Source: Acidobacteriota bacterium (GTDB taxonomy: Bacteria; Acidobacteriota; UBA890; WLXD01). Taken from it: 64,000 bases of DNA. The notes beneath the pieces were generated by a model. The model had not been told where the DNA came from and made no database searches. It saw nothing but the letters and a program-made list of their open reading frames with translations. Made by a program: the position numbers and the translations under genes. Where the stretch lies: NCBI GenBank assembly GCA_965248695.1, contig CBDFKD010000002.1, positions 5,120,001-5,184,000 on the forward strand. The letters run 5' to 3'. Positions 1,270 to 61,252 of this stretch are shown one piece after another; position 1 is the stretch's first letter, and every line of letters starts with the position of its first letter.

Positions 1270-1277
1270 GGAAATCG

Positions 1278-13831: not shown

Positions 13832-13837
13832 GAGGTG

Positions 13838-18434: not shown

Positions 18435-18713
18435 ATGGCGCGGAAGCGGTACACTGTAGAGCAGATCATCGCCAAGCTCAGGGAGGCAGAGATCGAGCTA
18501 GCGAAAGGGGCCAAGACACCGGAGGCATGCCGCAAGCTGGGAATCAGCGAGAACACGTATTACCGGTGGCGCAAGGAGTACGGTGGACTGAGGGTGGATC
18601 AGGCACGGCGACTCAAGGAGCTGGAGCGGGAAAACGGCCGGCTCAAGAAGTTGCTGGCGGAGACGATGCTCGACAACGCCATCCTCAAAGAGGTTTCGTC
18701 GGGAAACTTCTGA
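18435..18713 (+). CDS. IS3 transposase OrfA (HTH)
   Basis: MARKRYTVEQIIAKLREAE...CRKLGISENTYYRWRKEYGG...ELERENGRLKKL. Confidence 0.92.
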   Translation: MARKRYTVEQIIAKLREAEIELAKGAKTPEACRKLGISENTYYRWRKEYGGLRVDQARRLKELERENGRLKKLLAETMLDNAILKEVSSGNF

Positions 18714-38770: not shown

Positions 38771-39002
38771 CGTGATGCTCCTCCCTTCGCCGGAGCCGGG
38801 CCGTTACCGGAGGTTGGACTACCGTAGTCAACGGCCCATGCCCACTGGCAGGTATCCATGACGGGCGGACTTTACTGACGGCAATCGGCAAAGACAACCG
38901 AATCCCTGCAGATCCGGGGGAGCCTGACCTGGATCGCCGCCAGGAGCAGCGGCGGTTGACAGCGATCGTAAGGACCGATTGGATCTACGGTTGGAGGCTT
39001 CA

Positions 39003-40904
39003 ATGGTGGATCGCGTCAAGGCGCGCCAGCTCGGTATGGACCGCCCGGTCACGCGGCGCGATTTCGTCAACGGCTTCGCAGTGGGCAGCGCCGGCGCATG
39101 GGCGGCGACGCGCAGCGCTCTGGCAGGGCTCGAACGGTCGGAGCTCCTGGCCGCCAGTGTCGCTAGCGATTACCCGCCCGCGCTCACCGGGCTGCGCGGC
39201 AGCCATGAGGGGTCGCTCGAGGTGGGGCATCAGCTCCGCGACGGCGCCTACGCGAGCGCGTCTGGTGCCGAGGACTCCGGCGAAGTCTACGACCTGGTGG
39301 TCGTCGGTGGCGGGCTCTCCGGGCTATCCGGGGCCCACTTCTTCTGCCAGGCGCTCGGCGACGATCAGACCGTCCTGATCCTCGACAACCACGACGACTT
39401 CGGTGGACACGCCAAGCGCAACGAGTTCACCCACGGGGGCCGGACCTGGATCGGCTACGGCGGCACTATGAGCATCGTCTCGCCGTTCCCGTACAGCTAC
39501 GCCGCCAAAGCACTGGTGCGGGATCTGGGCATCGAGGTGGAACGCGCCAGCGAGTTTGTCGACAACGATGTCTACGCCGGGCTGGGCTCGGCGACCTTTT
39601 TCGATCGCGAGACCTTCGGCGACGACAAGCTCGTGGTCGGTCGCGGGGACGGCTCCTGGGAGAGCTTCTTCGGTAATGCGCCCTTCTCGGAGCGAGCGCG
39701 CCAGGATTTGATTCGTATCCACACCGCGAATCGCGACTACATGTCCGGTCTGAGCCGCGCCGAGAAGCGTGCGCGGCTCGCCAGAACGAGCTACCAGGAC
39801 TACCTGCTCGAGGTGGCACAGGTGGCTCCGGAGGCAATCAAGTTCTTCCTCGGCCGCGGCTACCGGAACAACAAGCGGGTCGATACGCTGCCGGCGCTGG
39901 AGGCGGCCCAGGGGGGAGCCCCCGGATTCGACGGCCTCGATCTCGCGCTCGAGGCCCGCTGGGCAGGCAGCGCCGACTACCGCTTCCATTTCCCTGACGG
40001 CAACGCCACGATCGCCCGCCTGCTCATCAACCGGCTGGTTCCCGCGGCGCTGCCCGGCGATCACGACATGCAATCGGTGCTGCAAGCCCCGTTGAGCTAC
40101 GACCGCCTGGATGAGGATGGAGCCAAGGTGCGGATGCGCCTCGACAGCACCGTCGTGCGGGTGGAGCACGAAGGCGTCGCCGGAAGCGCCGACTGGGTGA
40201 GTGTTGCCTACGTGCGCGACGGCAAGCTGTCGCGGGTACGAGCCCGCAGCTGTTTGCTCGCCTGCTGGAACCACGTCGTGCCGTACCTGGTCCCCGATCT
40301 GCCGCAGGAGCAGAAGGACGCGCTCGGCTACGCCGTGAAGGTACCGATGATGTACACCAACGTGTTCATCAGGAACTGGCGAGCGTTCAAGGAGTTGGGA
40401 GTGTCCCGCCTCAGCTATCCGGCGATGTACCACAGCTCGTGCAGACTGGATTATCCGGTGTCGATGGGAGGCTATGAATGCACCCAGTCGCCGGATGACC
40501 CCATCGTGCTGCACATGGTGCGCAACCCCAACAAACCCGGACTACCGCGCAAGGACCAGCAGCGCGCCGGCATGCTCGACATGCTGATGACCTCGTTCGA
40601 GACCATCGAGCTGGAGACTCGCGACCAGCTGACGCGCGCCCTCGAGGGCGGCGGCTTCGATCCCGCCGAGGACATCCTGGCGATTACCGCCAACCGTTGG
40701 CCGCACGGCTATGCCTATACCTACGACACGCTCGCCGATCCGGACGTTCCCGCCGCCGAGCGCCCGCACGTGGTCGGCCGCAAGCCCTTCGGGAAGATCG
40801 CGATCGCCAACGCCGACGCCGGAGCGGCGGCTTATACCAACGTCGCCATTGATCAGGCGCATCGCGCCGTTCAGGAGCTCATGCTGGCTAACGGGCTGAA
40901 GTAG
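39003..40904 (+). CDS. spermidine-dehydrogenase (SpdH)-like Tat-exported flavoprotein
   Basis: TRRDFVNG leader, YPPALTGLRGSH, VVGGGLSG, DNHDDFGGHAKRNEF, HFPDGN, NRWPHGY. Confidence 0.85.
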   Translation: MVDRVKARQLGMDRPVTRRDFVNGFAVGSAGAWAATRSALAGLERSELLAASVASDYPPALTGLRGSHEGSLEVGHQLRDGAYASASGAEDSGEVYDLVVVGGGLSGLSGAHFFCQALGDDQTVLILDNHDDFGGHAKRNEFTHGGRTWIGYGGTMSIVSPFPYSYAAKALVRDLGIEVERASEFVDNDVYAGLGSATFFDRETFGDDKLVVGRGDGSWESFFGNAPFSERARQDLIRIHTANRDYMSGLSRAEKRARLARTSYQDYLLEVAQVAPEAIKFFLGRGYRNNKRVDTLPALEAAQGGAPGFDGLDLALEARWAGSADYRFHFPDGNATIARLLINRLVPAALPGDHDMQSVLQAPLSYDRLDEDGAKVRMRLDSTVVRVEHEGVAGSADWVSVAYVRDGKLSRVRARSCLLACWNHVVPYLVPDLPQEQKDALGYAVKVPMMYTNVFIRNWRAFKELGVSRLSYPAMYHSSCRLDYPVSMGGYECTQSPDDPIVLHMVRNPNKPGLPRKDQQRAGMLDMLMTSFETIELETRDQLTRALEGGGFDPAEDILAITANRWPHGYAYTYDTLADPDVPAAERPHVVGRKPFGKIAIANADAGAAAYTNVAIDQAHRAVQELMLANGLK

Positions 40905-43524: not shown

Positions 43525-44928
43525 GAGATATAACCGGAAGTTGTGGATGGGAGGAAAAAGAAAGGCGGCGTAACCTTCGCTGGGATCATCAACAACCAGC
43601 AGCCGGCTGTGGAGGCCGGGAAGGAGACGCCACTCGTGCTCAAGATTATCGGTGGATCGGACGCGGAGGAAGGACAGCTGACACTGGACGTCGATGAGCT
43701 CGCCCGGCAGGGCGCGCTGCAGATGCTGGCAACAGCACTGGAGTGGGAGGTTCAGGAGTATATCCAGAGCCACGCCGGGCAACTGGATGAAGCCGGCCGT
43801 CGGCAAGTGGTACGCAACGGTCGGGCTCGCGCACGCAAGATCACGTTGGGGTGCGGGACGGTGCAAGTAGCCGCGCCACGGGTCAACGACAAGCGGCTCG
43901 ACGAGCAGGGACTGAGGCAGCGGTTCAGCAGTCGGATCCTGCCGCCCTACATGCGGCGCTCGCCGAAGGTGGCGGAGGTGCTGCCGGTGCTGTACCTGCG
44001 GGGCCTGTCGACGGGCGACTTCAAGGAGGCGCTGCCGATCTTACTGGGACAGGAAGCCAGCGGGCTGTCGGCATCGGCGATCTGCCGGCTGACGAACGCC
44101 TGGAGCACGGAGTACGAGGCATTCCGGAAGCTGGATCTGTCCACCAAGCAGTACGTATACGTGTGGGCGGACGGTGTGCACTTCAACATTCGACTCGAGG
44201 ATGATCGGCTGTGCACGCTGGTGATCCTGGGCGTTTTGCCGGACGGAACCAAGGAGCTCATCGCGGTCGAGGACGGGTATCGAGAGAGCACCGAGAGCTG
44301 GGCGTTCGTGCTCCGGGAGCTGAAGCGTCGAGGCATGCGGGCGCCGCTCGTGGCAGTGGGTGATGGGGCGCTGGGGTTCTGGGCGGCGGTGCGGGATGTA
44401 TGGCCCCAGACTCGAGAGCAACGATGCTGGGTGCATCGGCTTGGCAACGTGCTCGACAAGCTACCGAGGCGGCTGCAGGCCAAAGCCAAGCGCGCGCTGC
44501 ACGAGATCATCGGTGCGCCAACGCGCGAGGATGCTCAGGAGGGCATGGCGCGGTTCGCAGCCGACTACGGCGCCAAGTACTCCAAGGCCGTGGCGTCGTT
44601 GCAACGCGACTCCGACAAGCTGCTGACGTTCTACGACTTCCCCGCCGACCACTGGGTTCATCTGCGCACGGCCAACCCGATCGAGTCGGCGTTCGCCACC
44701 GTACGCCTGAGACAACGCGTCACCAAGGGCGCCGGCTCACGCACCAAGGCGCTGACGATGGCATTCAAGCTCCTGGAGATGGCACAGCAACGATGGCGCC
44801 GCATCAACGCTCCTCACCTCACTGCCCTCGTACTCGAGGGCGCCACATTCGTCGATGGAGTTCACCTGATCGCTAGCGAAGACGCCGCCTGAACAAATCC
44901 ACCGATCCACAACATTTGCAAATAACTC
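43525..44928 (+). mobile_element. IS256 family element, 1404 bp, 9-bp TSD GTGTCGACT
   Basis: IRL GAGATATAACCGGAAGTTGTGGATGGG, IRR (reverse complement) GAGTTATTTGCAAATGTTGTGGATCGG; TSD at 43516-43524 and 44929-44937. Confidence 0.95.
43627..44892 (+). CDS. IS256 transposase
   Basis: VVRNG, LYLRGLSTGD, YVWADGVH, RESTESW, GDGALGFW, QRCWVH, LRTANPIES; start uncertain (ORF open from 43543). Confidence 0.92.
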   Translation, partial: TPLVLKIIGGSDAEEGQLTLDVDELARQGALQMLATALEWEVQEYIQSHAGQLDEAGRRQVVRNGRARARKITLGCGTVQVAAPRVNDKRLDEQGLRQRFSSRILPPYMRRSPKVAEVLPVLYLRGLSTGDFKEALPILLGQEASGLSASAICRLTNAWSTEYEAFRKLDLSTKQYVYVWADGVHFNIRLEDDRLCTLVILGVLPDGTKELIAVEDGYRESTESWAFVLRELKRRGMRAPLVAVGDGALGFWAAVRDVWPQTREQRCWVHRLGNVLDKLPRRLQAKAKRALHEIIGAPTREDAQEGMARFAADYGAKYSKAVASLQRDSDKLLTFYDFPADHWVHLRTANPIESAFATVRLRQRVTKGAGSRTKALTMAFKLLEMAQQRWRRINAPHLTALVLEGATFVDGVHLIASEDAA

Positions 44929-44956: not shown

Positions 44957-46951
44957 TCAGGTCCGCTCCGCCCACGGATACTGGAACTCCGGCCTGATCA
45001 CGTCACCGATGAGGTCCTGAACGGCGCGATGCGCTTGATCCATCGCCGCATGCGTCAGGCTGGTGGCAGCGGCATCCGAGTTGGCCACGGCAATGCGACC
45101 AAATCGCTTCCGGCCGACCACCCAGGGGACCTCGTCGTAGCCCCATTCCGGGTCGTAGAGATCGTTGGCGCCGCCGGCATAGCCATGAGGCCATCGGTTG
45201 ACGGTGATCGCGCTGATCTCCTCGGCGGGGTCGAAGCCGCCGCCTGCGAGGGCGCGCCCAAGCTCGTCGCGGATGCGGTACTCGAAGTAATCGAACGATG
45301 TGGCGAGCAGCTCCTCGCGGCCGGCCCGGAACTGTTCCCTGGCAGAGAGACCAGGCTTGTGCGCGGGCATGCGCTGCAAGTGAAGCGGCTGAGGATCATC
45401 GGGGGTCCGGGCGCAGGTGTAGTCGCCGAGACTCCGATTCATGTCCAGCATCGCCGACCCGTGGTAGCAGCCGGGACCGTAGAAGCTGTTGATCCCGAGT
45501 GCCTCAAACGCCCTCCAGTTGCGCACCACGACGTTCGTGTAGACGAGCGGCTGGCGCACGGCCATCTTCAGCGCCGCCTTCTGCTCGTCGGGAAAGTCGG
45601 GACAGAGGTAGGGGATCATGGAGTTGTAGCAGGCCATGACGCAGGTGGCGCCGCGGGCCCGGTAGGCCTTGCCGTCACGCACGTAGGTGACCTCGACCTC
45701 GCTGGCAGTGCGGCGCTCGCCGACGTGGCGGACGTTGACCACGGTGCTGTTGAGGCGGACGCGCGCGGCGCTGCCGTCTTCATCGATGGCGGCGTAGTCG
45801 ACCGGCGTCGCCACCGAGTCTTCCATCGTCGTTCCCGGGAGAGCCTTCGGAATCAGCCATCTGACGATCAGTCGAGCGATCGCGGCATTGCCGTCGGGGA
45901 AGTGCACTCCCTCGCCGAAGTCGTTACCCTCGCCAAGCCAGCTCTCGGGCGGTCGCTCGAGACGCAGGCCGTCGAAGCCGGGCAGGGAGCCGGTGCGAAA
46001 CGCTCCCCAGGCGCTATAGGAGTCGATCCTGGCCGCACCGTTGGAGCCGCCTTCAGCACGGCGCATGAAGAAGGGCATGACACCGGGATCGGCTTTGACG
46101 ATCTTCAGAAGATAATCCTGGTAGCTCATCTTCCGCAGACGCGAGACCTTCTCATCGGAGGTCAATCCGGTTAGATAGTCGGTGTTGTCGTCGTAGGCGC
46201 GGGCGATATCGTGTTTGACGACATCAGTTAGCGGCGCATCGGCCAGGAACTGCGTCCATGTGAGCGTGCTACGAACCGAGCCCCAGCCGGCGGGATCTCC
46301 CACCGACAGGTGGTCGGCGCCGAACGTTTCCTGATCAAAGAAGACACCGGCCTGTAGGCCCATCTCGCGGTAAATGCTGCGATCGGCCGCCGTCGTCCGC
46401 AGGAAGCGTTGCTTGTCGATCCCGATGTCCTCCAGCAGCGCCTTTGCCTCGTGCGGGTAGCTGTTAGCGCCGTGGATCATCATCGTGCCGCCGTAGCCGA
46501 TGACCAGCTTGCCATCGACCTCGAACTCGTTGCGCTTGGCGTGCCCGCCGAAGTCATCGTGATTGTCGAGAATCAGAATTCGCGCCTCCGGCAACGCCTT
46601 GCGGAAGAAGTACGCCGCCGACAACCCGCTCAGCCCACCACCGACGACGATGAGGTCGTAGCTCTCGCCGGTGTCCTCGGCGTTGTCCCAGGTCTTCCCA
46701 TAGCGCATCTCGTGCGCTACTTCGTAGGAGCCCTCGTGACTGCCCCGCATGCCGGTGAGCCGCGGCGGGTAGTACTCGCCCGGCTGCGCTGCGGAAACGC
46801 CTGACCCGTTTGTCGAGCCCTTCGAGCCTGCGGGAGCCCCCGGCCTCCCGGCACCGACCAGGCCGCCGCCAATTGCGACGCTGGCCCCGTTGAGAAAATC
46901 CCGGCGGCTGATGTCACGGTCCATCCCGAGCTCTCGGTCAGTCTTGGTCAC
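44957..46951 (-). CDS. SpdH-like Tat-exported flavoprotein (paralog 2)
   Basis: SRRDFLNG leader, YYPPRLTGMRGSH, VGGGLSG, DNHDDFGGHAKRNEF, HFPDGN, NRWPHGY. Confidence 0.85.
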   Translation of the reverse strand: MTKTDRELGMDRDISRRDFLNGASVAIGGGLVGAGRPGAPAGSKGSTNGSGVSAAQPGEYYPPRLTGMRGSHEGSYEVAHEMRYGKTWDNAEDTGESYDLIVVGGGLSGLSAAYFFRKALPEARILILDNHDDFGGHAKRNEFEVDGKLVIGYGGTMMIHGANSYPHEAKALLEDIGIDKQRFLRTTAADRSIYREMGLQAGVFFDQETFGADHLSVGDPAGWGSVRSTLTWTQFLADAPLTDVVKHDIARAYDDNTDYLTGLTSDEKVSRLRKMSYQDYLLKIVKADPGVMPFFMRRAEGGSNGAARIDSYSAWGAFRTGSLPGFDGLRLERPPESWLGEGNDFGEGVHFPDGNAAIARLIVRWLIPKALPGTTMEDSVATPVDYAAIDEDGSAARVRLNSTVVNVRHVGERRTASEVEVTYVRDGKAYRARGATCVMACYNSMIPYLCPDFPDEQKAALKMAVRQPLVYTNVVVRNWRAFEALGINSFYGPGCYHGSAMLDMNRSLGDYTCARTPDDPQPLHLQRMPAHKPGLSAREQFRAGREELLATSFDYFEYRIRDELGRALAGGGFDPAEEISAITVNRWPHGYAGGANDLYDPEWGYDEVPWVVGRKRFGRIAVANSDAAATSLTHAAMDQAHRAVQDLIGDVIRPEFQYPWAERT

Positions 46952-47043: not shown

Positions 47044-47742
47044 ATGAATGAAGTCATCGGTGCTGTTCATGAATTCCATGACGAAGAGTTCGCTGCAGGA
47101 TGGGCTGACCGCTTCGTGCCGACACTCGAACGCCTGGAGTTGTTCGATGTCATGCTCGCCGAGCTGACGTCACGTGTGCCGCCGAGTGGCTGCGTGGTCG
47201 AGCTTGGAATTGGTCCAGGGTACTTGGCAGATCATCTGCTGAGAGCGATGTCCTCGGTTCGCTACTATGGCATCGATTCGTCCGATCCGATGCTCGTCAT
47301 CGCGCGGCAAAGGCTCGGGTCGCACTCAGCCCGAGTCACCTACATACAGGCTGATCTCCTAGCGGCCCATTGGTGGAGGGACATCCGCACCCCGGTCGAT
47401 GCCATCGTTTCAACCTGGGCGTTGCACGATCTGGGCTGCCAGGAGAGCGTCGAGGCAGTCTACGCTCGCTGCGCTCGCATGCTCCAGGATGGGGGGATTC
47501 TGCTGAACGGAGACTTCATCAAGCCTGACAAGACCATGTACGAATATGAACCGGGTAGATTCGAGATAGCGCGACATCTCGCGATTCTGCGCCGTGTCGG
47601 GTTCACCAAGGCAGACTGCTTGGTCGTGCTCGAAGAGGAAACCGAATCGCCTACGGCGGCGCAGAACTACGCGTGCTTCAGGGCGGTAGTAGCCCGGACA
47701 CATCAGAGCCCGGAGCCCGGCAGACGGAAAGGCTGCATATGA
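47044..47742 (+). CDS. class I SAM-dependent methyltransferase
   Basis: VVELGIGPG, GIDSS, QADL, DAIVSTWALH, GGILLNGD. Confidence 0.85.
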   Translation: MNEVIGAVHEFHDEEFAAGWADRFVPTLERLELFDVMLAELTSRVPPSGCVVELGIGPGYLADHLLRAMSSVRYYGIDSSDPMLVIARQRLGSHSARVTYIQADLLAAHWWRDIRTPVDAIVSTWALHDLGCQESVEAVYARCARMLQDGGILLNGDFIKPDKTMYEYEPGRFEIARHLAILRRVGFTKADCLVVLEEETESPTAAQNYACFRAVVARTHQSPEPGRRKGCI

Positions 47743-50661
47743 AGCGTCTCTTGTCGACCGCACCCGCACTGGCCAGTGCGATCATCCTCTCGCTCACCGC
47801 AGGCGCCTGTTCCAGTCCCGACCCTGCTGACCAGACGCCGTCCGGCTCGGCCGTCGATCGGCCGCTGATGCCGGACTGGGACGCGGAGCGCAGCGAACGA
47901 CTGGCGTTTTCCGGCGAGCCGTTTCGCACACCGGAGGGCTTTCGCGTCGAGGAAGTTGCCGGCGACGATCTCATCGGATCGGCCGTGAATCTCACGTTCG
48001 CGTGGGATGGCCGCCCCATCGTGGCGCTCGAGCAACGGGGACTCGTAATTCTCGACGACGGCGACGGAGACGGTCGCTACGATCGAATGACACGGCTCTC
48101 AGAAGAGATCAGCACCGCTCACGGCCTTTATGTGCTCGGCCCGGACGATCTGCTCGTGCATGCCGACGGGCCGAGTGATGGCCCCGGCCTCTATCGTGTG
48201 AGCGGCTGGCAGGAGGGTCCCTCGGAGAGCACGGTCGAGCTGCTTCGACGGTCGCGCGGAGGGATCCAGGAGCACGGTCCCCACACGATCACCCGAGGCC
48301 CCGACGGAGCAATTTACCTGCTCTTCGGCAATCATGCCGTTCCCGACATCGAGCCCTCACAGCGCTCACCACTTCGCGCGCTCCAAGAGGATCAGCTACT
48401 ACCCGTCATTCTGGATCCACGCGGTCATGCAAACACCATTCGTGCCCCGGGCGGAACCATCTGGAGAGTCGACCTCGAGGCCGACTCCTGGGAGCTGTTC
48501 GCCGGCGGGCTGCGCAATCCATTCGACATGGCCTTTTCTCCTGCCGGCGGCCTCTTTGTCTACGAGGCGGACATGGAGTGGGATCGCAGTCTCCCGTGGT
48601 ACCGACCCACGCGGGTCCTGCACGCGATCCCGGCCGGCGACTACGGGTGGCGAACCGGCTCCGGCAAAGTAGCGTTCGATAACATCGATACGCTCCCCAG
48701 CGTCGCCGACGTCGGCCGCGGCTCGCCGGTGGGCGTGGCCTTCTACCGCCATCACGCCTACCCCGCGGCGTTCGACGGCGCGTTATTCCTAGGCGATTGG
48801 GCACGTGGCCGCATACGCGTTCTCTTTCCGCAGGAGCACGGCGCTAGCTGGCAGGGGGAGGCCGTCGACTTCGTTCTTCGAGAGCCTCTCAATGTGACCG
48901 ACCTCGCGGTGGGTCCTGACGGCCATCTGTATTTCACCATCGGCGGTCGCCAGACCACTGGTGGGCTGTTCCGAGTGGTCTACGACGGATCCGACGGTGG
49001 CGCCCGAGGGAGCATGCAAGGCGGTCAGGGGAGCGCTGTCGAGAGGGCCTTGCACCAGCCAATGCCGCGATCCGCCTGGGGCCGCGCGGCCATCGCACAG
49101 CAGCGAGCTGCGGCCGGGGCAAGCTGGGGAGAAGGCCTGCGCGACGCTGTCGAGGACACCGATCGATCGAGGTTGGAGAGACAGAGCGCGCTGGAGATCC
49201 TGCAGCTCTATGGCCCGCAACCGTCTGTTGACGATTTGCGGAGATTCCTGGCGGCAGATGATGCCGGCGTACGAGCTACCGTCGTGACCCACCTGGGAAC
49301 CCGAACCGGCCCTAGCGTCTACCGCGCACTGGCAGTCGCACTGGAAGACCCGGATGCGCGCGTTCGGCGCCGGGCGGCAGAGGCGCTGGCGCGCTCCGGG
49401 AGCGCTGGAGAGGGCGCAACCTGCGGACATCGAAGCTATCCTCGCCGGCCTGGTCGGCCTTCTCGACGACGAGGATCGGTTCGTTCGGTACGCTGTCCGC
49501 GAGACGCTCGCTCGAGTGGACCCGGATCGCTGGATCTCCAAAGTGGATCTCGCCGGGCCACCTTCGAACGCCGCGTTCGAGGCGATGCTTGCCTTGGTTC
49601 TCCGTCCGGGCTTTCCCGATGCCGAGCTCGTCTTCGAACATCTGCGCCTTCACGTCCAATCACAACCCGGCGAAGTACTGCTGGGCTCCTATTTACGCGT
49701 GCTCGAGCTCGCCCTGGTGCGCTCCAGGGACGCTGGGGTCGACAGCGTGGAGCTCGAGGGACTGGGCCAGTCCATGTTGGATTGGTTCCCCACGCAACGC
49801 CGCGAGCACAACCGCAAGCTCGAGCGCATCCTCGCCTACCTGGCTCCGCCGGGGGCGGTGGACGCGCTGACGGCAAGGTTGGCGCTCGGCCGGAACCAGG
49901 AGGACGAGATCCACACCCTCTACGCCTTGCGAGCGATCGAAGGCGACTGGAGCGAGGCCCAGCGACAGAGCGTCGTCACCTGGTTCGATCGTGCTCGAGC
50001 GTTCACCGGCGCAGCCAGCATGGTGGGCTATATCGACGCCCTCTGGCAGCGGTGGCTAGCGAACCTCTCCGACGCCGAGCGCGTGGCGGCGGTCGAACGC
50101 CGGCAGGTCTGGTTGAGCGCCGAGCGGGACAGGATCGCGGCACTGGTGGCCGACGAAGACCTGCCGAGCGAGGATGAGCGCCGCATGCTGCGTCAGATGA
50201 GCTTCGATGAGCTGGCAGAGTACGTCGAATACGACGTCATGGCCTACGAGCGCTTCGACCCTGCGCACGGCGAACGCGTCTTCCAGCGTGCCCGTTGTGC
50301 CGACTGCCACGTTTTCGGCGATGTCGGTCGCGGTGGCGGACCCGACCTCTCGACCGTCGTCAGTCGCTTCAGGCGGCGCGAGATCCTGGAGTCGATCGTC
50401 TACCCGTCACGGGTGATCTCCGACCAGTACAGTGCCCTTCGCGTCCGCCTCCGTGACGGACGGAGATACGTCGGCATGCACGCCGCCGAGAGCGAAGAGG
50501 ACCTCGTCCTGATCACCGCTACGGGCGAACGGGTCGTCCTGGACAAACAGCTGGTCAGCGAGCGCGAGCCGGCCGACGTATCCCTGATGCCGGAGGGTCT
50601 ACTCGAGGCCATGAGCTTCGACGACTTGATGAGCCTGATGCGATACCTGGAAGAAGGGTAG
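47739..50661 (+). CDS. PVC-type heme-binding protein (sugar-dehydrogenase-like beta-propeller + HEAT repeats + CxxCH cytochrome c), with a frameshift near 49400
   Basis: TAGAC lipobox; EHGPH, GLRNPFD, DMEWD, YGWR, GRGSPVG; HEAT-like segments; CADCH, GPDLS, SLMPEGL in the second frame. Confidence 0.8.
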
Positions 50662-51109: not shown

Positions 51110-52591
51110 TCAATCGCCCGTTTGGCCGAACGTCTCCATGTACCACTTCACGAACCGAGCCGGGCTCCCCTCGTGAGTGGCGTAGCGGCCAGCGCTGTAG
51201 CCGCCCGACTGGATACCGAGGTGGTTGTTGCCGGTAAGCCAGATGTCTTCCATCGTCGTGACGTGCCACAGCGCCTTGAGCTCGTCCGGATCGTAGTCGC
51301 GCCCCTCGACCGCATCCGGATGCACGAGCCAGATGACCTCGTTGTCGGTTCGGTCGTGCGCACGCGGTGTGTATCGGGCGATCATGACGTGGTCGTCGTA
51401 GCCCTGCCAGTAACCGGTTTGCCAGCGGGTCGTGGCGATATCGGTCTCATGGGTCCACGCGATCCTGGTTGGCAGGAGAGGAGCGACGGGGTTGCCATCC
51501 ATGGACCCAGTGACGAACCCCGGGTTGAGCTCGCCGTCAACGTCGCCATAGCCGCCCATGCCTGACGCCCGTCGTTCGGCCGCTGCCGGGACCCACTCGT
51601 CGACCGCCGTCGCGTGGGCGGCCTTCTGTTCGTCGGTGCGCTCTTCGTCGTAGTTGTGCGCTTTCACCAAGGACCCGTGCGCTGGTCCGCAGTGGTAGCA
51701 CTCGATGAAGTTCTCCGTCGCGAGCTTCCAGTTCGACTTCAGCGGGTAGTACTCGCGGGCCGCGACCTTGAGCTTGTCGAAGCGGTAAATTTCGTTCAGC
51801 GCTCGCACACGAGTCACGGTCGATTCGAACTCGGGGGGCGAATCCGATCGAGATAGATTGATGAAGATCTGGCCAGCGGCGACGCGCACATGGCAGGGGA
51901 GAAGTCCGTTGTCCGCCGGGTCGAAATCGTCCTGCATGCCATAGGCGTAGATCAGACTTCCTTCGGTGTCATACGTCCAGGCGTGGTACGGACAGCGGAA
52001 CACCGGCGAGTTGCCGTTCTGGCCAAGCTGCTTCACTGACAAGCGTGGATCCTGCGGCCTCGTATCCGCGTCGTGGCGGCACACCCGTGAGCCGCGGTGC
52101 CGGCAGACATTGTGGAAGGCGCCGACACTTCCGGTCTGGCTACGAACGAGCAGGATGCTCTCCGAGCGCCCGAACTCGAAAACGAAGAAATCGCCCGGGC
52201 TCGGAATGCGGCTCGCCTGGTCGACGTACTGCCAGAGATTCTCCGCCAGGAAAGCCTCCTCCACCGCATAGTGCTTCGGGTCCAGGTAGTACTCGGCCGG
52301 AATCGTGGTGCCTTCTTTCCAGCCGTTGATGCCGGCGTTCTCGGGCACGGTTACTGCGAACCGTGGCGCACCCTTGCCACCGTAGCCCGGTGCTTCCGCC
52401 GGCAAGTCTTTGCGGGCAACCGCAACCGGCGAGCCGATCGCATTCGCTGTTGATGGCCCCTGTGGTGGCGCACCGAACAGGGAGTTGGGCAAAGCGATTG
52501 CCGCGGTCCCAGCGGCTACCGAGGACTTGGCGAACGTGCGGCGGCTTACGCGCTGTCCGCCGTTGACGTCGTGACTGTCCTCGTTGCTCAT
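51110..52591 (-). CDS. Rieske non-heme iron oxygenase alpha subunit (GbcA/Stc2-like) with Tat leader
   Basis: SRRTFAK + hydrophobic stretch; NVCRHRG...CPYHAWTY; NWKLATENFIECYHCGPAH; WHVTTMED. Confidence 0.88.
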   Translation of the reverse strand: MSNEDSHDVNGGQRVSRRTFAKSSVAAGTAAIALPNSLFGAPPQGPSTANAIGSPVAVARKDLPAEAPGYGGKGAPRFAVTVPENAGINGWKEGTTIPAEYYLDPKHYAVEEAFLAENLWQYVDQASRIPSPGDFFVFEFGRSESILLVRSQTGSVGAFHNVCRHRGSRVCRHDADTRPQDPRLSVKQLGQNGNSPVFRCPYHAWTYDTEGSLIYAYGMQDDFDPADNGLLPCHVRVAAGQIFINLSRSDSPPEFESTVTRVRALNEIYRFDKLKVAAREYYPLKSNWKLATENFIECYHCGPAHGSLVKAHNYDEERTDEQKAAHATAVDEWVPAAAERRASGMGGYGDVDGELNPGFVTGSMDGNPVAPLLPTRIAWTHETDIATTRWQTGYWQGYDDHVMIARYTPRAHDRTDNEVIWLVHPDAVEGRDYDPDELKALWHVTTMEDIWLTGNNHLGIQSGGYSAGRYATHEGSPARFVKWYMETFGQTGD

Positions 52592-52660
52592 CTACTTCGC
52601 CTCTCGACTATTCGAACGTTGGTCGACTCGCGCTTTCGCGAACTCGCCGAGCTTCAACGA

Positions 52661-52701
52661 ACGAAAACCGCGGGAGCCGACGAGCAGATCGGCTCCCGCG
52701 G
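52661..52701 (-). terminator. intrinsic terminator after the 52727 Rieske gene
   Basis: 13-bp perfect stem CCGCGGGAGCCGA/TCGGCTCCCGCGG with 8-nt loop, followed by TTTTCGT on the minus strand. Confidence 0.75.
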
Positions 52702-52726
52702 ATTCACTAGCCAACTGACAGAAAGC

Positions 52727-54247
52727 TCAATCGCCGGCCTGGACAATCTCCTTCATGTACCAGTTGATGAAGCTCGACGGCCCGCCCTCGCGCGTTCCAT
52801 ACCGGCCGCCGCTGTATGCGCCGGACTCGACGCCGTCGTGGTTGTTGTCGGTGATCCAGATATCCTCCTGGATCGTGACGTGCCACAGCCCCTTGACGTG
52901 TTCCGGGTCGTAGTCACGGCCCTCGACTGCGTCGGGGTGCACCAGCCAGACGATCTCGGCGTCAGTGAACTTCTCGTTGCGCGGCGTGAACCGAACCACC
53001 ATGACGTGATCGTCGTAGAACTGCCAGTATCCGGTCGACTCTCCGGTGGTCGCGATGATCGTACGGTGGTCGCCTTCCTTTCTGCCGGGCAGCCAAGGTG
53101 CAGCCTGCTTGCCGTCGATCGTGCCAGTGACAAACCCCGGGTTGAGCAGACCAGTGAGGTTCTCATACTGGGGCTCGCCGCCCATACCTCCTCCGCCCAT
53201 GCCGGCATCTTCATCGTCGCGACGACGACGGCTGTCCTCCGGAACCCAGTCCGCCACGGCAGCAGCCTTTTCGTTCATCTGCTGGTCGCTGAGGTCGTGG
53301 TCCCAATTGTGCGTCGTCACCAGGGGTCGGTGGGCCGGGCCGCAGTGGTAGCACTCCTTGAAGTTCTCGAGCGCCAGCTTCCAGTTGGCGTTGATTGGGT
53401 AGGACTCGCGCGCCGCGACCTTGAGGTCTTTCAAGCTGTACTCGGGGGCCAGCCGCCTGAGGGCGGTAACTGCCGAATCGAAATCCGGCGGCGTGTCTGA
53501 CTTCGACAGGTTGACGAAGATCTGGCCTTCGGTAACCCGCGTGTGGCACGGGAGCAAACCGTTGTCGGCCGGGTCGAAGTCGTCCTGCATGCCGTAGGCG
53601 TAGATAAGGCTGCCCTCGGTGTCGTATGTCCAGGCGTGGTACGGGCAGCGGAACACGGGTGAGCTGCCGCTCTGGCCGAGCTGCTTGACCGACAGACGCG
53701 GATCGCTCGGCTTCGAGTCGGAGTCGTGACGGCACAATCGCGATCCGCGGTGACGACAGACGTTGTAGAACCCGCGCACCTCGTTGTCCTGGCCTCGAAC
53801 GATCAGAATGCTCTCGGAGCGACCGAACTCGAAGACGTAGAAGTCGCCCGGGTTCGGAATGCGGCTCTCCTGGTCGGTGTACTGCCAGAAGTTCTCCCCG
53901 ACGAATTTCTCGTCGGCTTCGAAATGCTTCGCCTCGATGTAGTACTCGGCGGGAATCGTCAGGCCCTCTTTCCAGCCGTTGACGCTCGCCTTCTTGGCCA
54001 CCGGGCCGGTGAGCGGGGCTGCGCCCCGGCCGCCGTAGCCAATGTTCTCGTTGCGCGCTTCGACGCGCGCGGCGCGGCCATAGGTGGCCGTGGTTGCGGT
54101 CGTCGTTGCGGCCGTTGCCGGGGTAGCGCCGAAAAGCGATTTCGGGAGAGCGACGGCGGCGGTGCCCGCGGCAACCGAGGACTTGGCGAACGTGCGGCGG
54201 CTTACGCGCGGCCCGCCGTTCTTGTCGTGGTCGTCCTTCTTGCTCAT
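52727..54247 (-). CDS. Rieske non-heme iron oxygenase alpha subunit (paralog) with Tat leader
   Basis: ATG 54247 after AGGAG; SRRTFAK; NVCRHRG...CPYHAWTY; ENFKECYHCGPAH; WHVTIQED. Confidence 0.88.
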   Translation of the reverse strand: MSKKDDHDKNGGPRVSRRTFAKSSVAAGTAAVALPKSLFGATPATAATTTATTATYGRAARVEARNENIGYGGRGAAPLTGPVAKKASVNGWKEGLTIPAEYYIEAKHFEADEKFVGENFWQYTDQESRIPNPGDFYVFEFGRSESILIVRGQDNEVRGFYNVCRHRGSRLCRHDSDSKPSDPRLSVKQLGQSGSSPVFRCPYHAWTYDTEGSLIYAYGMQDDFDPADNGLLPCHTRVTEGQIFVNLSKSDTPPDFDSAVTALRRLAPEYSLKDLKVAARESYPINANWKLALENFKECYHCGPAHRPLVTTHNWDHDLSDQQMNEKAAAVADWVPEDSRRRRDDEDAGMGGGGMGGEPQYENLTGLLNPGFVTGTIDGKQAAPWLPGRKEGDHRTIIATTGESTGYWQFYDDHVMVVRFTPRNEKFTDAEIVWLVHPDAVEGRDYDPEHVKGLWHVTIQEDIWITDNNHDGVESGAYSGGRYGTREGGPSSFINWYMKEIVQAGD

Positions 54248-54506: not shown

Positions 54507-56320
54507 TCAGGTACGTTCCGCCCAGGGGTATTGGAACTCGGGACGAATCACGTCGGTCAGCAGCTCCTGCACGGCGCGGTGTGCCTGCTCGAAGGCCGCC
54601 TGGGTTAGCGAGATGGCTGCGGCGTCCGAGTTGGCGATCGTGATGCGCCCGAAACGCTGTCGCCCAACGACCCATGGCGCCTCGTCATAACCCCAGTCGG
54701 GGTCATACAGGTCATTGGCGCCGCCCGCATAGCCATGCGGCCAGCGGTTGACGGTGATCCCGGCAATGTCGCGCGCCGGGTCGAACCCGCCGTCGCCGAG
54801 CGCCCGGCCGAGCTGGTCGCGGATGCTGCGCTCGAAGGTCTCGAAGCTTGTCGCCTGAAGCTCCTCGCGTCCAGCGCGAAACTGATCTCGCGCCGACAGT
54901 CCGGGCCGAATGGGAAGGCGCTGCAGCCACAACAGGATGGGCTCGTCGGGAGAGGCGGAATGGCGGTAGTCCCCGACGTTGACGCCCCAGTCCAGATCGA
55001 TGAACTCGTGGAACCCACCCGGGCTGTGGATGGCACCGACACCCAGGTTGGCAAACGCCGTCCAGTTCTCGATCGCAACCTGCGTGTAGACGTACGGCTT
55101 CCGTACCGCCAGCTTCAGGGCCTCCTTCTGTGCCTCCGGAACCTCCGGACACAGGTACGGAATCATTGCGTTGTAGCAGGCCATTACGCAGCTGCCGCCG
55201 CCGACGCGGACCGCCCGCCCGTTCTGCACGTAGGTCACCGCGACCTCGTTGGCTGCGCGTCGCTCGCCCGCGTGGCGCGCACTCACCACCGTGCTGTTGA
55301 GACGGATGCGTACCGGATTGCCGGCCTTGTCCAGCTGCGAGTAACGGATCGGCGTGGTTACCGAATCCTCCATCGTCGTCCCCGGCAGCGCCGCCGGAAT
55401 GAGCCAACGGACCATTAGCCGCGCGATGCTGGCATTGCCGTCCGGGAAGTGAATTCCCTGGAATGGGTTGTCGCCCGGGGCAGCGTTGCGCGCCGGACGT
55501 TCGAGACCCTCATCTTTCGCAGTCGGGCGATCTTCTCCTCGTCGCTCAACTCCGGTAAATAGTCGCGGTTCTCGGTATAGAGCTGCAGGATGCCCGCCTT
55601 GGCGGCTTCCGATAGGGGTGTTTGGGCAAGGAAGTCGGTCCAGCGACGGCGCGCCTGGGCACCGCGTGCCCGCCTTGGCTCGCCGACGACCAGGCGGTCT
55701 GTGCCGAAGGTCTCGCGGTCGAAGAACACGCCGCCGCGCAGACCCATCTCACTGTAGAGGTCGTTCGCCGAGCCGCCAGGGAAGCGCTCCGCGCTCACGC
55801 CGATATCCTCGAGGAGATCCTTGGCCTCCGCCGGATAGTACCCGGTGATGAATTGGGTGCCGCCGTAGCCGATCAACTGCCGGTCGCCGACGGTGAACTC
55901 GACGCGTTTGGCATGCCCACCGAAGTCGTCATGATTGTCGAGAACGAGCACCCGGGCTTCGGGGAGCGCCTTGCGAAAGTAGTAGGCGGCGGCAAGGCCA
56001 CTGAGCCCGGCGCCGACCACCACCAGGTCGTACTGCTCGCCCGATTCCTCTGCCTCGTTCCAGGTCTTGCCGTAGCGCATCTCGTGCGCCACCTCGAAGG
56101 AACCGTCGTGGCTGCCGCGCATGCCGGTGAGCCTCGGCGGGTAGTAGCTTTCCGGGTCCTGTGTGGGCGTCGCATGGCTGCCTGGGGGCTGGCCGGTAGG
56201 CACGGTGGCGGAGGCTCCAATCGCTGCTGCCGAGCCTCCAACGGCGACGCTGCTGCCGTTAAGGAAATCCCTTCGAGTGATTCGGCGGTCCATACCAAGC
56301 TGCTTGTCAGTCCTTTTCAC
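54507..56320 (-). pseudogene. SpdH-like flavoprotein (paralog 3), internal deletion with frameshift at about 55509
   Basis: TRRDFLNG leader and same C-terminus DVIRPEFQYPWAERT as 44957 gene; after RLRKM it jumps out of frame to GLERP...HFPDGN, lacking about 50 aa present in the paralog. Confidence 0.82.
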
Positions 56321-57535: not shown

Positions 57536-59491
57536 GTGTCCAATCTGCAGCGGCTCATCGGCTGTGGTGTCGTGCTGGCGATGGTCGGCGGAGGGCCAAT
57601 CGCCCTGCACGCCGAAGACGATCGTCCTCCCGGCGAATGGCCGTACTTCGGCGGCGACAAGGCGTTCACGCGCTACTCGGCCCTGGCGCAGATAAACAGC
57701 GACAATGTCGCCGACCTGCAGGTGGTCTGGCGTCGCCCGGCGGTCGACCAGGCGTTTCGGGATGCCTACTCGGAGGTACGCATCCCGGGCTACTTCCGGT
57801 CGACGCCGATCATGCTGGAGGGACTGCTGTTCGCACCCAACGGCGTCGGTCTACTGCGGGCGCTGAACCCGGCGACCGGCGAGACGGTCTGGGAGCAGGA
57901 GCCGTTCGCGCCGACGGTCGGTGAGGCGCGCGGCCGAAGCCCGCGCGGCATCGACACCTGGACCGACGGGACGGATCGGCGGCTGTTCTTGGTACGCAAC
58001 GGCCATCTGTACGCCCTCAACGCGCGTACCGGAGAGCCGTACGCCGACTTCGGTGTTCGGGGACGTCTCGATCTGAGCTTCGCTGAGCAGCGCGCCGGCA
58101 GTTTCCGCTGGTCCGCCGGTCCCATCGTCGTGGGCGACGTCATCGTCATTGCCGGAATCACCGGCGGCGCTGGGGACGGCGGCAACCGCAAGGAGGCCGT
58201 GCCGGAGGACGTGCGCGGTTACTCGGTTCGCACGGGCGAGCTGCTGTGGACGTTCAACGTGGTTCCGAAGCCCGGTCAATTCGGCAACGACACCTGGGGC
58301 GAGGATTCCTGGAAGTCATCCGGCGATCTGGGCTCGTGGTGCTGCGTGACCGCCGACGAGGATCTGGGCTACGTGTATATCCCGCTGACGGCGCCAACCG
58401 CGGCGTACTACGGGGGGCACCGGCCGGGCGACAACCTGTACTCCAATTCATTGGTCGTACTCGACGCCAAGACCGGCAAGCGGGCGTGGCATTTCCAGAT
58501 GGTGCATCACGATGTGTGGGAGTACGACACGGTAGGCCCGGCGACGCTGGGCGAGATCACCGTTGATGGCCGGCGGATCAAAGCCGTGATGCAGCCCAGC
58601 AAGACGGGTTTTCTGTATGTTTTCGACCGTGCGACAGGGGAGCCTGTGTGGCCGATCGAGGAGCGCCCGGTGCCGCAGTCGAACGTCCCTGGCGAGCGCC
58701 TGTCGCCGACGCAGCCGTTCCCGACCAAGCCCCCGCCGTTCGACATGCAGGGCTTCTCCGAGGACGACCTGATCGACTTCACGCCGGAGCTCCGGGCGCG
58801 AGCGCTCGAGCTCGTGGAGCCGTTCCTGCTGGGCCCGATGTTTACCCCGCCATCTGCGACTGCGGACGATTCGGATGGCAAGCAGGGCACGCTGATCAGT
58901 CCGGGGGCCTGGGGTTCGGGCAACTGGAATACCGGGGCCTTCGATCCCGAGACCGGGTTCTACTACGCCGTTTCGCACACGATGCCAAACGTCTATCCGC
59001 TGTCCAGCCCCGACGATCCGGAGGCCACGATCGATTACGAGTGGGGTGATGGGCCCGGCGTCCCGACCATCGATGGGTTGCCGATCTTCAAGCCCCCGTA
59101 TGGCCGCATCACGGCCTACGACATGAATCGCGGCGAGCAGGTCTGGATGGTGGCCAACGGTGATGGTCCGCGTGACCATCCACTGCTCGAGGGGCTCGAC
59201 GTTCCGCCGCTCGGCATGCTCGGCCGGCCGGCGCCGTTACTTACCAAGAGCTTGCTGTTCCTCGGTGAGAGCAGCGATGCCATCCTCGGTATCAGCGTCA
59301 ACGGCAACAAGTTCCGCGCCTACGACAAGGCCGACGGCAACGTCCTGTGGGAGACGGAGTTGCCCGCCGGCGTCACCGGCGCCCCGATCACGTATCTGTA
59401 CGAGGGCCGGCAGTACATCGTCGTCGCCGTCGGCGGCAACGACGATCCGGCCGAGTGGGTGGCCTTCGCGCTGGACGGGACGACGGATTGA
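57536..59491 (+). CDS. PQQ-dependent dehydrogenase, glucose/quinate/shikimate-type soluble form
   Basis: EWPYFGGD..TRYS, YGGHRPGDNLY, WHFQMVHHD, PVWPIEERPVPQS, PTQPFP, KPPYGRITA, PITY. Confidence 0.88.
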   Translation: MSNLQRLIGCGVVLAMVGGGPIALHAEDDRPPGEWPYFGGDKAFTRYSALAQINSDNVADLQVVWRRPAVDQAFRDAYSEVRIPGYFRSTPIMLEGLLFAPNGVGLLRALNPATGETVWEQEPFAPTVGEARGRSPRGIDTWTDGTDRRLFLVRNGHLYALNARTGEPYADFGVRGRLDLSFAEQRAGSFRWSAGPIVVGDVIVIAGITGGAGDGGNRKEAVPEDVRGYSVRTGELLWTFNVVPKPGQFGNDTWGEDSWKSSGDLGSWCCVTADEDLGYVYIPLTAPTAAYYGGHRPGDNLYSNSLVVLDAKTGKRAWHFQMVHHDVWEYDTVGPATLGEITVDGRRIKAVMQPSKTGFLYVFDRATGEPVWPIEERPVPQSNVPGERLSPTQPFPTKPPPFDMQGFSEDDLIDFTPELRARALELVEPFLLGPMFTPPSATADDSDGKQGTLISPGAWGSGNWNTGAFDPETGFYYAVSHTMPNVYPLSSPDDPEATIDYEWGDGPGVPTIDGLPIFKPPYGRITAYDMNRGEQVWMVANGDGPRDHPLLEGLDVPPLGMLGRPAPLLTKSLLFLGESSDAILGISVNGNKFRAYDKADGNVLWETELPAGVTGAPITYLYEGRQYIVVAVGGNDDPAEWVAFALDGTTD

Positions 59492-60501
59492 CCGCGACAA
59501 TCGAGCCCCTCCGCATCGGCTTCATCGGTGCCGGCGCAATGGCCACCTGGCAGGTGTACCCGTCGCTACACTTCGCGCCCATTCACCTGCAGGCGGTTTG
59601 CGATCGCGACGAGGCATTGGCCCGTGACACGGCCGGCAAGTTCGGACCGGGGCGCTGGTACACCGACTACCGGGAGATGTGGGCGAGCGAGGATCTCGAG
59701 GCGGTGATCGTTCAGATGCACCCGAAGCCGCGCCAGAAGATCGTGCTGGAGGCTCTCGAGGCCGGCTATCACGTCTTCATTCCGAAGCCGCCGGCCGCTT
59801 CATTGGTGGCAACGGAAGAGCTGGCCGCGGCGGCGCGCCAGGCGCGGCGGACGCTGATGGTCAACTTCCAGCGACGCTTCTGCTTCGGGGTTCGAAAGGC
59901 GCGAGAGATCATGGCGACCGAGTCGTTCGGTGCGATGAGCCAGTTCTTCGGCTCCTTTTGCTGCGGCATCTTCGATCCGGTCCGTGGCCGCGACTACGAA
60001 GACCCGATCCATGCGTACGTGCTCGATTTCGCGCCACACTATCTGGATATAGCCCGGTATATCGGTGGCGAGGTGCAGCAGCTGTCGCTGTTCCATCAGA
60101 CGGCCGGTGAGGGCGTCGCGCTGGCCGTTGCCGTGGAGTTCGCAAGCGGTGCGGTCGGGACGCTGCAGCTCAACAGCCAGCGGCTATGGTGGCGTAACTA
60201 CGACCGCATCGAGATCACCGGGCAGAGCGAGTACCTCGTTCTCGATGACCTGTGGTCGGTGAAGCACTACGGTCAAGAGCAGAATACCTTCACCGAGAAC
60301 TGGAGTGATGAGCGGAGCGGCGAGCTCACCGGCGACGGTCCGTGTCTGAGCGAGTGGGTCAACGCCATCCGCGAGGATCGCGAGCCAGTTGGCAGCATCG
60401 CAGACGCGGTCCGGACCATGCGCTTGTATCAGGCAGTCTGGGACGCGGTCAGAGAAGGACGTTCGGGGGTCGTGTTCGATCGACGGACTGCTGCCGGCTG
60501 A
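59488..60501 (+). CDS. Gfo/Idh/MocA family oxidoreductase
   Basis: LRIGFIGAG, AVCDRD, ALEAGYHVFIPKP, MVNFQRRF, HYLD; TTG start overlapping previous stop. Confidence 0.85.
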   Translation: MTATIEPLRIGFIGAGAMATWQVYPSLHFAPIHLQAVCDRDEALARDTAGKFGPGRWYTDYREMWASEDLEAVIVQMHPKPRQKIVLEALEAGYHVFIPKPPAASLVATEELAAAARQARRTLMVNFQRRFCFGVRKAREIMATESFGAMSQFFGSFCCGIFDPVRGRDYEDPIHAYVLDFAPHYLDIARYIGGEVQQLSLFHQTAGEGVALAVAVEFASGAVGTLQLNSQRLWWRNYDRIEITGQSEYLVLDDLWSVKHYGQEQNTFTENWSDERSGELTGDGPCLSEWVNAIREDREPVGSIADAVRTMRLYQAVWDAVREGRSGVVFDRRTAAG

Positions 60502-60505
60502 GCCT

Positions 60506-61249: not shown

Positions 61250-61252
61250 CCG

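Follow-up and report, generated by a model that had tools for sequence, protein, structure and literature searches.

Alpha-only Rieske monooxygenases that act on quaternary ammonium compounds are represented by Stc2, GbcA and CntA. Stc2 is cytoplasmic and CntA uses the reductase CntB; to our knowledge, the literature places Rieske oxygenases in the cytoplasm, where they rely on a reductase chain fed by NAD(P)H. Rieske proteins known to be exported by twin-arginine translocation (Tat) include the Rieske subunit of bc1/b6f complexes and the small subunit of arsenite oxidase. Here we analyze 64,000 nucleotides of an Acidobacteriota genome (assembly GCA_965248695.1, contig CBDFKD010000002.1, positions 5,120,001 to 5,184,000; hereafter the window), in which two tandem Rieske oxygenase genes, RO1 and RO2, encode alpha subunits that begin with a Tat-type leader. 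We favor, with moderate confidence, the explanation that RO1 and RO2 belong to the Stc2/GbcA/CntA lineage of Rieske monooxygenases and are exported by Tat to the periplasm, where they work independently of NAD(P)H. A search of full-text literature, with most subscription journals outside its coverage, returned no report of a Tat-exported oxygenase alpha subunit, and prior work may exist. The host genome measures 5.89 Mb on two contigs and is 96% complete.

Two tandem Rieske oxygenases

A preliminary description, made from the letters of the window, had noted two tandem Rieske oxygenase alpha subunits at 51110-54247. Both open reading frames (ORFs) lie there on the minus strand, with the following features.

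51110..52591, minus strand: RO1, alpha-only Rieske oxygenase of 493 residues (ORF, Pfam, PDB matches, AlphaFold2 (AF2) model, Foldseek)
52727..54247, minus strand: RO2, paralogous Rieske oxygenase alpha subunit of 506 residues with the domain plan of RO1 (ORF, Pfam)
52469..52591, minus strand: Tat-type signal peptide of RO1, residues 1-41 (sequence and leader logo of 113 sequences)
54125..54247, minus strand: Tat-type signal peptide of RO2, residues 1-41 (sequence)
52022..52093, minus strand: clade-specific insertion in the Rieske domain of RO1, residues 167-190 approximately, HDADTRPQDPRLSVKQLGQ... (alignment; AF2 predicted local distance difference test (pLDDT) 74-81)
52668..52701, minus strand: terminator-like hairpin between RO2 and RO1, a 14-bp stem followed by TTTTCGTT (consensus match)

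RO1 and RO2 are about 62-64% identical and share one layout, which in RO1 runs from the Tat-type leader through an Ala/Pro-rich linker that contains GYGG to the Rieske and catalytic domains. Ribosome-binding sites precede both ATG codons, GAGAGG 8 nt upstream in RO1 and AGGAGA 6 nt upstream of position 54247 in RO2, so that both leaders lie downstream of such a site. A longer ORF of RO2 that opens with GTG and reaches 54331 is unlikely to mark the true start. The hairpin between the genes is a consensus match only, given that terminator-like sites in the region are in total no more numerous than in shuffled sequence.

Both proteins match PF00355 (Rieske) above its cut-off and PF00848 (Ring_hydroxyl_A) with 98-107 bits. 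In an alignment of 100 sequences, the Rieske [2Fe-2S] ligands C163, H165, C200 and H203 are invariant, as are the mononuclear-iron residues H300, H305 and D449, while E297 is conserved in at least 90%. The full catalytic subunit read earlier from the motifs CxH...CxxH, ExYHC...H and a C-terminal Asp is thereby confirmed. We take the ligand roles of H300, H305, D449 and E297 from the alignment to 3n0q; with these assignments the catalytic domains of RO1 and RO2 carry a predicted 2-His-1-carboxylate site with a bridging acidic residue.

The closest PDB entries to RO1 by sequence are 3n0q, Stc2 (3vca, 4qup) and CntA. An AF2 model of RO1 built on the alignment reached a mean pLDDT of 87.7 and a predicted template modeling score (pTM) of 0.86, with low confidence at residues 1-50, pLDDT 64-78 in the linker and 74-81 at residues 170-190; its top Foldseek matches in the PDB were 3n0q, 4quq, 3vca and 6y9d. 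Judged by sequence and structure matches, RO1 and RO2 are members of the alpha-only Rieske monooxygenase group of Stc2, CntA and GbcA, and they probably assemble as alpha3 oligomers. Considering the pLDDT of 64-78 that the model assigns to the linker, this stretch may be packed against the enzyme and not be a free tether. GYGG is semi-conserved in many clade members within this otherwise variable stretch (RO1 residues 51-90). A search aimed at longer, fused forms of RO1 gave none, which is weak evidence.

A conserved twin-arginine leader and an insertion beside the Rieske cluster

Tat signals follow the consensus S/T-R-R-x-F-L-K. In agreement with the preliminary description, which had reported SRRxFLK-like motifs, a hydrophobic region and a divergent linker, both leaders start with an acidic/basic n-region, continue with RVSRRTFAKSSVAAGTAA(I/V)ALP(N/K)SLFGA and pass into divergent Ala/Thr/Pro-rich linkers. 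The twin arginine of RO1 occupies residues 17-18 inside SRRTFAK (residues 16-22), a near-N-terminal motif of the consensus type; the hydrophobic (h-) region reads SSVAAGTAAIALP and the c-region NSLFGA. In both leaders an uncharged, weakly hydrophobic h-region of at least 13 residues precedes a c-region with a (-3,-1) site.

That description had also suggested examining leader conservation across homologs. Among 5.8 billion proteins, 120 relatives were listed at 48-86% identity, which together with RO1 and RO2 gave a set of 122. A [ST]RRxFA[KR]-type leader with h-region was present in 113 of them (48-100% identity), and this conservation excludes a chance match. The nine others begin inside or after the h-region and therefore represent shorter gene calls. 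When the 113 leaders were aligned on the twin arginine, it was invariant, as was the Phe at +3 (113/113), while position +4 is Ala in 106 of the leaders and position +5 is basic (Lys or Arg) in 100. Their h-regions consist of Ser/Thr/Ala/Gly/Val and close in Leu-Pro; a (-3,-1)-type site follows in 109/113 and a basic c-region residue occurs in 75/113. RO1 and RO2 diverge at 12 of 27 leader codons, and as 10 of these differences are synonymous and 2 non-synonymous, the leader is under purifying selection and not simply a recent copy. By sequence, the leader is well supported as a conserved Tat-type signal that defines its clade; that RO1 and RO2 are exported and their signals cleaved we infer from its features.

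The clade is sharply set off from its relatives. A search of 1.84 billion representatives clustered at 50% identity returned a single full-length match (724 bits), a few partial or divergent ones and then a gap, beyond which came leaderless proteins of about 400 residues with 31-41% identity that align only from query residue ~88 onward. We computed a FastTree phylogeny on catalytic-domain columns, leaving out leader and insertion and using a midpoint root for drawing only. On these columns the 57 leader-bearing rows formed one split with a Shimodaira-Hasegawa-like support of 100 and a stem length of 0.9. The same 57 sequences, and none of the 43 leaderless ones, carry a 17-residue insertion, HD[AE]D..P.D.RLSV[KR]QLG, between the CxH and CxxH loops. 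In further genome and metagenome members the H-to-C spacing is 34-44 residues, compared with 17 where the insertion is absent. Some members have a longer Rieske-loop insertion, with a spacing of 42-44 versus 34 (L101:7263-8633, L103:10028-11539, L111:239-1600). The insertion probably sits on the face at which the electron donor docks in known enzymes, and we propose that it might be a remodeled docking surface for a donor other than NAD(P)H-dependent reductases. In a phylum sample of 401 genomes, in which at most 4 candidates per genome were scored, the clade was found at 740 bits or more in 8 genomes of 3 genera.

In the host genome, 18 paralogs of the clade oxygenase lie in 14 arrays, and one paralog is interrupted by an in-frame TGA. 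Their leaders are of two styles, ...SRR[DT]FAK[ST]SVAAG... and STRRDLARSAVVGY.... A second oxygenase subclade, with leader STRRDLARSAVVGYTAAA and a short linker, is located at L080 (contig C2 of the host, C2:5609000-5628000), where RO-FAD and RO-RO-RO-FAD arrangements occur and the gene of the flavin adenine dinucleotide (FAD) protein follows after 29 and 63 bp. Two TatC genes are present in the host genome, and the bc1-type Rieske protein of the host also bears a twin-arginine leader (C2:5585874-5586425). A genome-wide regular expression for RR leaders gave 269 candidates with many false positives and was used qualitatively only.

Linkage to SpdH-like dehydrogenases

Three genes for SpdH-like flavoproteins lie in the window, among the neighbors that the preliminary description had named.

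54507..56320, minus strand: gene of an SpdH-like FAD/heme b dehydrogenase that bears a Tat signal; immediate upstream neighbor of RO2, broken into two ORFs
44957..46951, minus strand: SpdH-like flavocytochrome, intact, Tat signal MDRDISRRDFLNG... (PDB 7d9f/7d9i, E 1e-148; TIGR01409, 19 bits)
38979..40904, plus strand: third SpdH-like paralog with RR leader (sequence, profile matches)

These flavoproteins of 640-664 residues with an ISRRDFLNG-type leader match Pseudomonas SpdH over its full length (7d9f-j, E 1e-148, residues 14-647). The heme b histidines, His54 and His562 of the Pseudomonas enzyme PaSpDH, are kept within the motifs EVAH and NRWPHGY (24/24 and 23/24 homologs). With full-length homology and both axial histidines, they can be assigned to the SpdH flavocytochrome family on sequence grounds. 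According to the accessible part of a report on PaSpDH, which also identifies the His ligands, its heme b is surface-exposed, bis-His ligated and reduced by FAD upon substrate addition, with electron exchange at an electrode beginning at -0.14 V versus Ag/AgCl (PMC12564564). That part lists cytochrome c and artificial dyes as in vitro acceptors and does not name the natural one (PMC12564564).

We counted 28 SpdH-like ORFs in the host genome. Half of the oxygenase arrays, 7 of 14, lie no more than 300 bp from such an ORF; in five cases the two share a strand, at a spacing of 9-176 bp. When placement was randomized, 0.30 arrays did so on average and at most 3 in any of 5000 permutations, none of which reached 7. 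Several RO-FAD pairs are separated by only 9-85 bp on one strand, which suggests co-translation. The arrangement recurs in related Acidobacteriota loci (L001, L002, L007, L017, L019, L022), and a FAD-RO-RO operon is found in a genome from another family of the phylum (L096). Among eight metagenome contigs with usable flanks, the oxygenase and an SpdH-like gene are adjacent in two (L099, L103) and within 10 kb in four (including L101 and L138).

Electron supply and export

The preliminary description had found no beta subunit, ferredoxin or reductase in the window, and this holds: a Pfam scan of 45 further window ORFs, mostly of at least 200 residues and not exhaustive for small ORFs, gave no Ring_hydroxyl_B, ferredoxin or FNR-type reductase. 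A protein with NADH:flavin-oxidoreductase (Oxidored_FMN) and Pyr_redox_2 domains is encoded at 13835-15805 on the plus strand, 35 kb from the RO genes, and is not a canonical Rieske-oxygenase reductase. In the 96%-complete host genome, Ring_hydroxyl_B (PF00866) and FAD_binding_6 (PF00970) had 0 matches each. NAD_binding_1 (PF00175) had a single match, which looks by sequence like a PyrK-type subunit. We found no FNR-type reductase (FAD_binding_6, NAD_binding_1 and Fer2) in this genome, a result that does not exclude ferredoxin reductases of the glutathione-reductase type.

Two leaderless relatives, P0187 and P0238, carry FAD_binding_6, NAD_binding_1 and Fer2 as fused domains, and a third, P0236, carries Fer2. 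From the first two fusions it follows that cytoplasmic cousins of the clade do use the FNR-Fer2 type of reductase. The reductase part of P0238 found no match in the host genome, where only its oxygenase half and the Fer2 stretch did. A survey of 27 Acidobacteriota neighborhoods, whose genes were called noisily by a greedy ORF heuristic, showed no recurrent family of ferredoxins or reductases. As to the consistent pairing of homologs with a cytoplasmic reductase, which had been named in advance as refuting export, no FNR-type reductase was found for the leader-bearing clade in the host genome or the 27 neighborhoods, and such pairing appears as fusion in leaderless relatives.

Two candidates for a dedicated ferredoxin were discarded. 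The best Fer2 ORF of the genome, a plant-type candidate for a periplasmic ferredoxin at C2:2341416-2341805, has no signal, and a 194-residue Rieske ORF close to one of the RO-FAD loci is a piece of a different type of oxygenase and has no leader. Only one Fer2 protein with a Tat signal was found; from its sequence it looks like the small subunit of a molybdoenzyme.

In our favored explanation, RO1 and RO2 would receive their cofactors and assemble in the cytoplasm, cross the membrane in folded form by the Tat pathway and act in the periplasm, where the insertion beside the Rieske cluster would serve the docking of a donor that does not depend on NAD(P)H. Their usual partners might be the Tat-exported SpdH-like FAD/heme b amine dehydrogenases, and the clade could contribute to the breakdown, in the periplasm, of small nitrogen-rich compounds, for example methylated amines or polyamines. 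Turnover in the periplasm, the electron donor and the substrate are what we infer here. A quaternary or N-methyl amine as substrate would fit the gene context, in that an OpuAC-type transporter, DAO and GCV_T domain genes and SpdH-like genes are all located in the window. The earlier proposal of exported oxygenases keeps its support from the conserved leader, TatC, the missing FNR-type reductase and the SpdH linkage; its simple form, with SpdH as donor, meets counter-evidence.

A number of observations weigh against this explanation, some of them concerning export and others the donor. TIGR01409 gave no match to the RO leaders at E <= 1, while it scored 19-21.6 bits on the neighboring SpdH-like proteins (cut-off 16.7). 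Pfam TAT_signal (PF10518, cut-off 22.7) gave 13.5 bits (E 0.073) for RO1 and no match for RO2, and the SpdH-like control also stayed under the cut-off (17.2 bits). The genome encodes three leaderless small Rieske ferredoxins together with many Pyr_redox-type flavoproteins, and possible ferredoxin reductases of the glutathione-reductase type belong on this side as well. Tat-anchored Rieske proteins and remnant leaders are known. Along with the long flexible linker after the h-region, these points would fit the absence of a soluble periplasmic enzyme: the leader could be an uncleaved Tat signal-anchor on the outer face of the membrane, or a vestigial or chaperone-binding element of a cytoplasmic enzyme that is served by a generic reductase. 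We regard this as improbable. The h-region is short, weakly hydrophobic and Ala/Gly/Ser/Thr-rich with a Pro at its end, and since the (-3,-1) site (109/113) and the basic c-region residue (75/113) are conserved as well, a cleaved signal fits better than an anchor. Moreover, the twin arginine does not vary in the 113 sequences, which reach down to 48% identity, the origin of the leader coincides with the long stem branch and the cluster insertion, and no FNR-type reductase was detected in the genome.

The points concerning the donor begin with its potential. Oxygenase-type Rieske clusters have a low potential, and the RO Rieske motifs CRHRG...CPYHAW are of this usual type; with SpdH heme b at ~+0.06 V versus the standard hydrogen electrode (converted), electron transfer to the Rieske cluster would be uphill. 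The SpdH-like gene beside RO2 lacks about 46 residues (about 262-307) and changes frame relative to its intact ortholog at L001:6070-8010; in Logan contigs of runs X1-X3, which come from the same sample, the break is spanned with 0 gaps, perhaps not independently of the assembly. Seven of the 14 arrays have no adjacent SpdH-like gene, and tblastn found no SpdH-like neighbor at L095 or L097, which are very GC-rich. In Gammaproteobacteria, finally, a leaderless oxygenase stands in an operon with a Tat-signal SpdH-like protein. With the two proteins in different compartments there, the linkage of oxygenase and SpdH can be metabolic rather than redox.

The gene order in these Gammaproteobacteria is TonB receptor, Tat-signal SpdH-like protein, acyl-CoA-synthetase-like protein, aminotransferase, leaderless oxygenase and major facilitator superfamily transporter (L042, L043, L049; also L031, L040, L064), the middle genes being named from N-termini and lengths. 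By its gene content the operon looks like an uncharacterized amine-catabolic pathway shared with the Acidobacteriota module.

The oxygenases could therefore be exported with the SpdH-like proteins as mere pathway neighbors, which would handle substrates of one family at an earlier or later step than the oxygenase, and with electrons arriving from an unlinked carrier, be it a cytochrome, a quinol-linked protein or a hitch-hiking ferredoxin, periplasmic or membrane-bound. Separate compartments in Gammaproteobacteria, the arrays without an SpdH-like gene, the broken gene beside RO2 and the apparently high heme b potential would all be in agreement with this. However, no other carrier recurs beside the oxygenases in the 27 Acidobacteriota neighborhoods, the sole Tat-signal Fer2 protein looks like a molybdoenzyme subunit, and the same-strand RO-FAD gaps of 9-85 bp suggest co-translation. 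We consider this alternative rather unlikely. Given that the oxygenases are exported, the SpdH-like flavocytochrome is a possible direct donor, an assignment we make only tentatively. We rate as unlikely the complete version, a self-contained and NAD(P)H-free periplasmic system in which the SpdH-like protein would oxidize an amine and pass two electrons via its surface heme to the Rieske oxygenase, with the insertion as dock.

Neighboring genes and gene integrity

The other neighbors named in the preliminary description, a CxxCH heme protein and PQQ dehydrogenases, are likewise present. Further features of the window are listed below.

47673..50661, plus strand: PVC-type CxxCH heme-binding protein gene, convergent with RO1, split into two overlapping ORFs
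57536..59491, plus strand: pyrroloquinoline quinone (PQQ)-dependent dehydrogenase with signal peptide
43543-44892, plus strand: Mutator-family transposase
17301-18329, minus strand: IS3-type integrase gene
18527-19594, plus strand: IS3-type integrase gene

The heme-binding protein comprises DUF7133, HEAT repeats and a C-terminal heme domain and is encoded by an intact ORF of 1048 residues at L001:11931-15077. Copies of the IS3 type recur near oxygenase loci of related genomes (cluster c5).

Broken SpdH-like and PVC heme genes, three transposases in the window and an oxygenase paralog with an in-frame TGA might suggest that RO1 and RO2, in a genome with many insertion sequences and broken genes, have lost their function or are in decay, and that their leader has no present function. 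Yet the ORFs of RO1 and RO2 are intact with all metal ligands conserved, their leader is under purifying selection, and intact orthologs at 81-93% identity exist in L001 and L002. We regard decay as highly improbable.

Around the oxygenases of the 27 neighborhoods, SpdH-like genes (20 genes at 12 loci) and PQQ dehydrogenases (12 genes at 11 loci) were recurrent, as were Amidohydro_3, S15, S9 and M28 peptidases, M24 creatinase-like proteins and members of the arginase family. Several of these recurrent neighbors carry RR or lipoprotein signals. A PQQ dehydrogenase was set aside as the specific partner of the oxygenases, as only 4 of the 14 arrays have one within 10 kb. M24 creatinase/prolidase-like and arginase-family enzymes are generally known as cytoplasmic. 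Genes of both kinds that adjoin oxygenases encode RR or lipoprotein leaders (L008:14134-15540, L003:11601-12842 and similar), and judging from these leaders, such enzymes may be exported in this lineage.

Redox enzymes with putative export are greatly expanded in the host genome, where besides the 18 oxygenases with a Tat leader there are 28 ORFs of the SpdH-like type and 20 for PQQ dehydrogenases; they cluster around 2.35-2.55 Mb and 5.15-5.65 Mb of contig C2. The window further encodes a protein with GCV_T and DAO domains (55-2618, plus strand) and an OpuAC-type ATP-binding cassette transporter with fused binding and permease proteins (60389-62808, plus strand). Neither of these nor the Oxidored_FMN/Pyr_redox_2 protein has an apparent export signal, and the domains of the three suggest a parallel cytoplasmic route for methylated amines. 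A 477-residue ankyrin-repeat protein is encoded at 24026-25459 on the plus strand of this bacterial window.

Significance

If this large, conserved clade indeed acts outside the cytoplasm, oxygen activation by Rieske oxygenases would also take place in the periplasm, driven by another electron source. This would bear on the degradation of methylated amines and polyamines without uptake and on how gene annotation infers a "missing reductase". With SpdH-like donors, electrons from one amine would cover the cost of activating oxygen outside the cytoplasm, for attack on a second substrate or on that amine itself. Biocatalysis could be concerned as well, given the direct electron exchange of SpdH-type heme b proteins with electrodes (PMC12564564). 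Leader, insertion and partner candidates of the clade are all defined, so it is easy to test.

Comparison with known systems

The resemblance to GbcA- and Stc2-type enzymes that was noticed at the outset is borne out by the best matches, Stc2, 3n0q and CntA, and by GbcA as the best NCBIfam model. Stc2 (3vca, 4qup) and the uncharacterized 3n0q have the same alpha-only Rieske and catalytic fold as RO1 and RO2 and are the best matches overall (E 1e-48 to 3e-52 by sequence; Foldseek E ~1e-32, with a template modeling score of 0.78-0.81 on the target). They also share the iron motif ENxxECYHCxxxH with the RO proteins. In contrast, identity is 28-30%, Stc2 and 3n0q are without leader or linker, and their CxH-to-CxxH spacing is 17 residues versus 34 in the RO proteins.

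The GbcA model NF058607 is the best NCBIfam match of RO1 and RO2 and covers nearly the full catalytic region. We rejected RO1 and RO2 as GbcA equivalogs, for they score 225 and 233 bits against a cut-off of 670. GbcA works with the reductase GbcB, whereas a GbcB-type FNR-Fer2 reductase was not found in the host genome. CntA (6y8j, 6y9d), a quaternary-ammonium Rieske monooxygenase, belongs to the same structural group, but it is only ~20% identical, and its sequence match is limited to the N-terminal half.

With the Rieske proteins of bc1/b6f complexes and arsenite oxidase, RO1 and RO2 as proposed here would share twin-arginine export of a Rieske [2Fe-2S] domain. Those proteins, however, are electron-transfer subunits without a mononuclear-iron oxygenase domain, and their leader is usually a membrane anchor. 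The flavoproteins of the window, in turn, align end to end with SpdH (7d9f-7d9j) at an identity of ~45-50% and have the RR leader and both heme b histidines in common with it.

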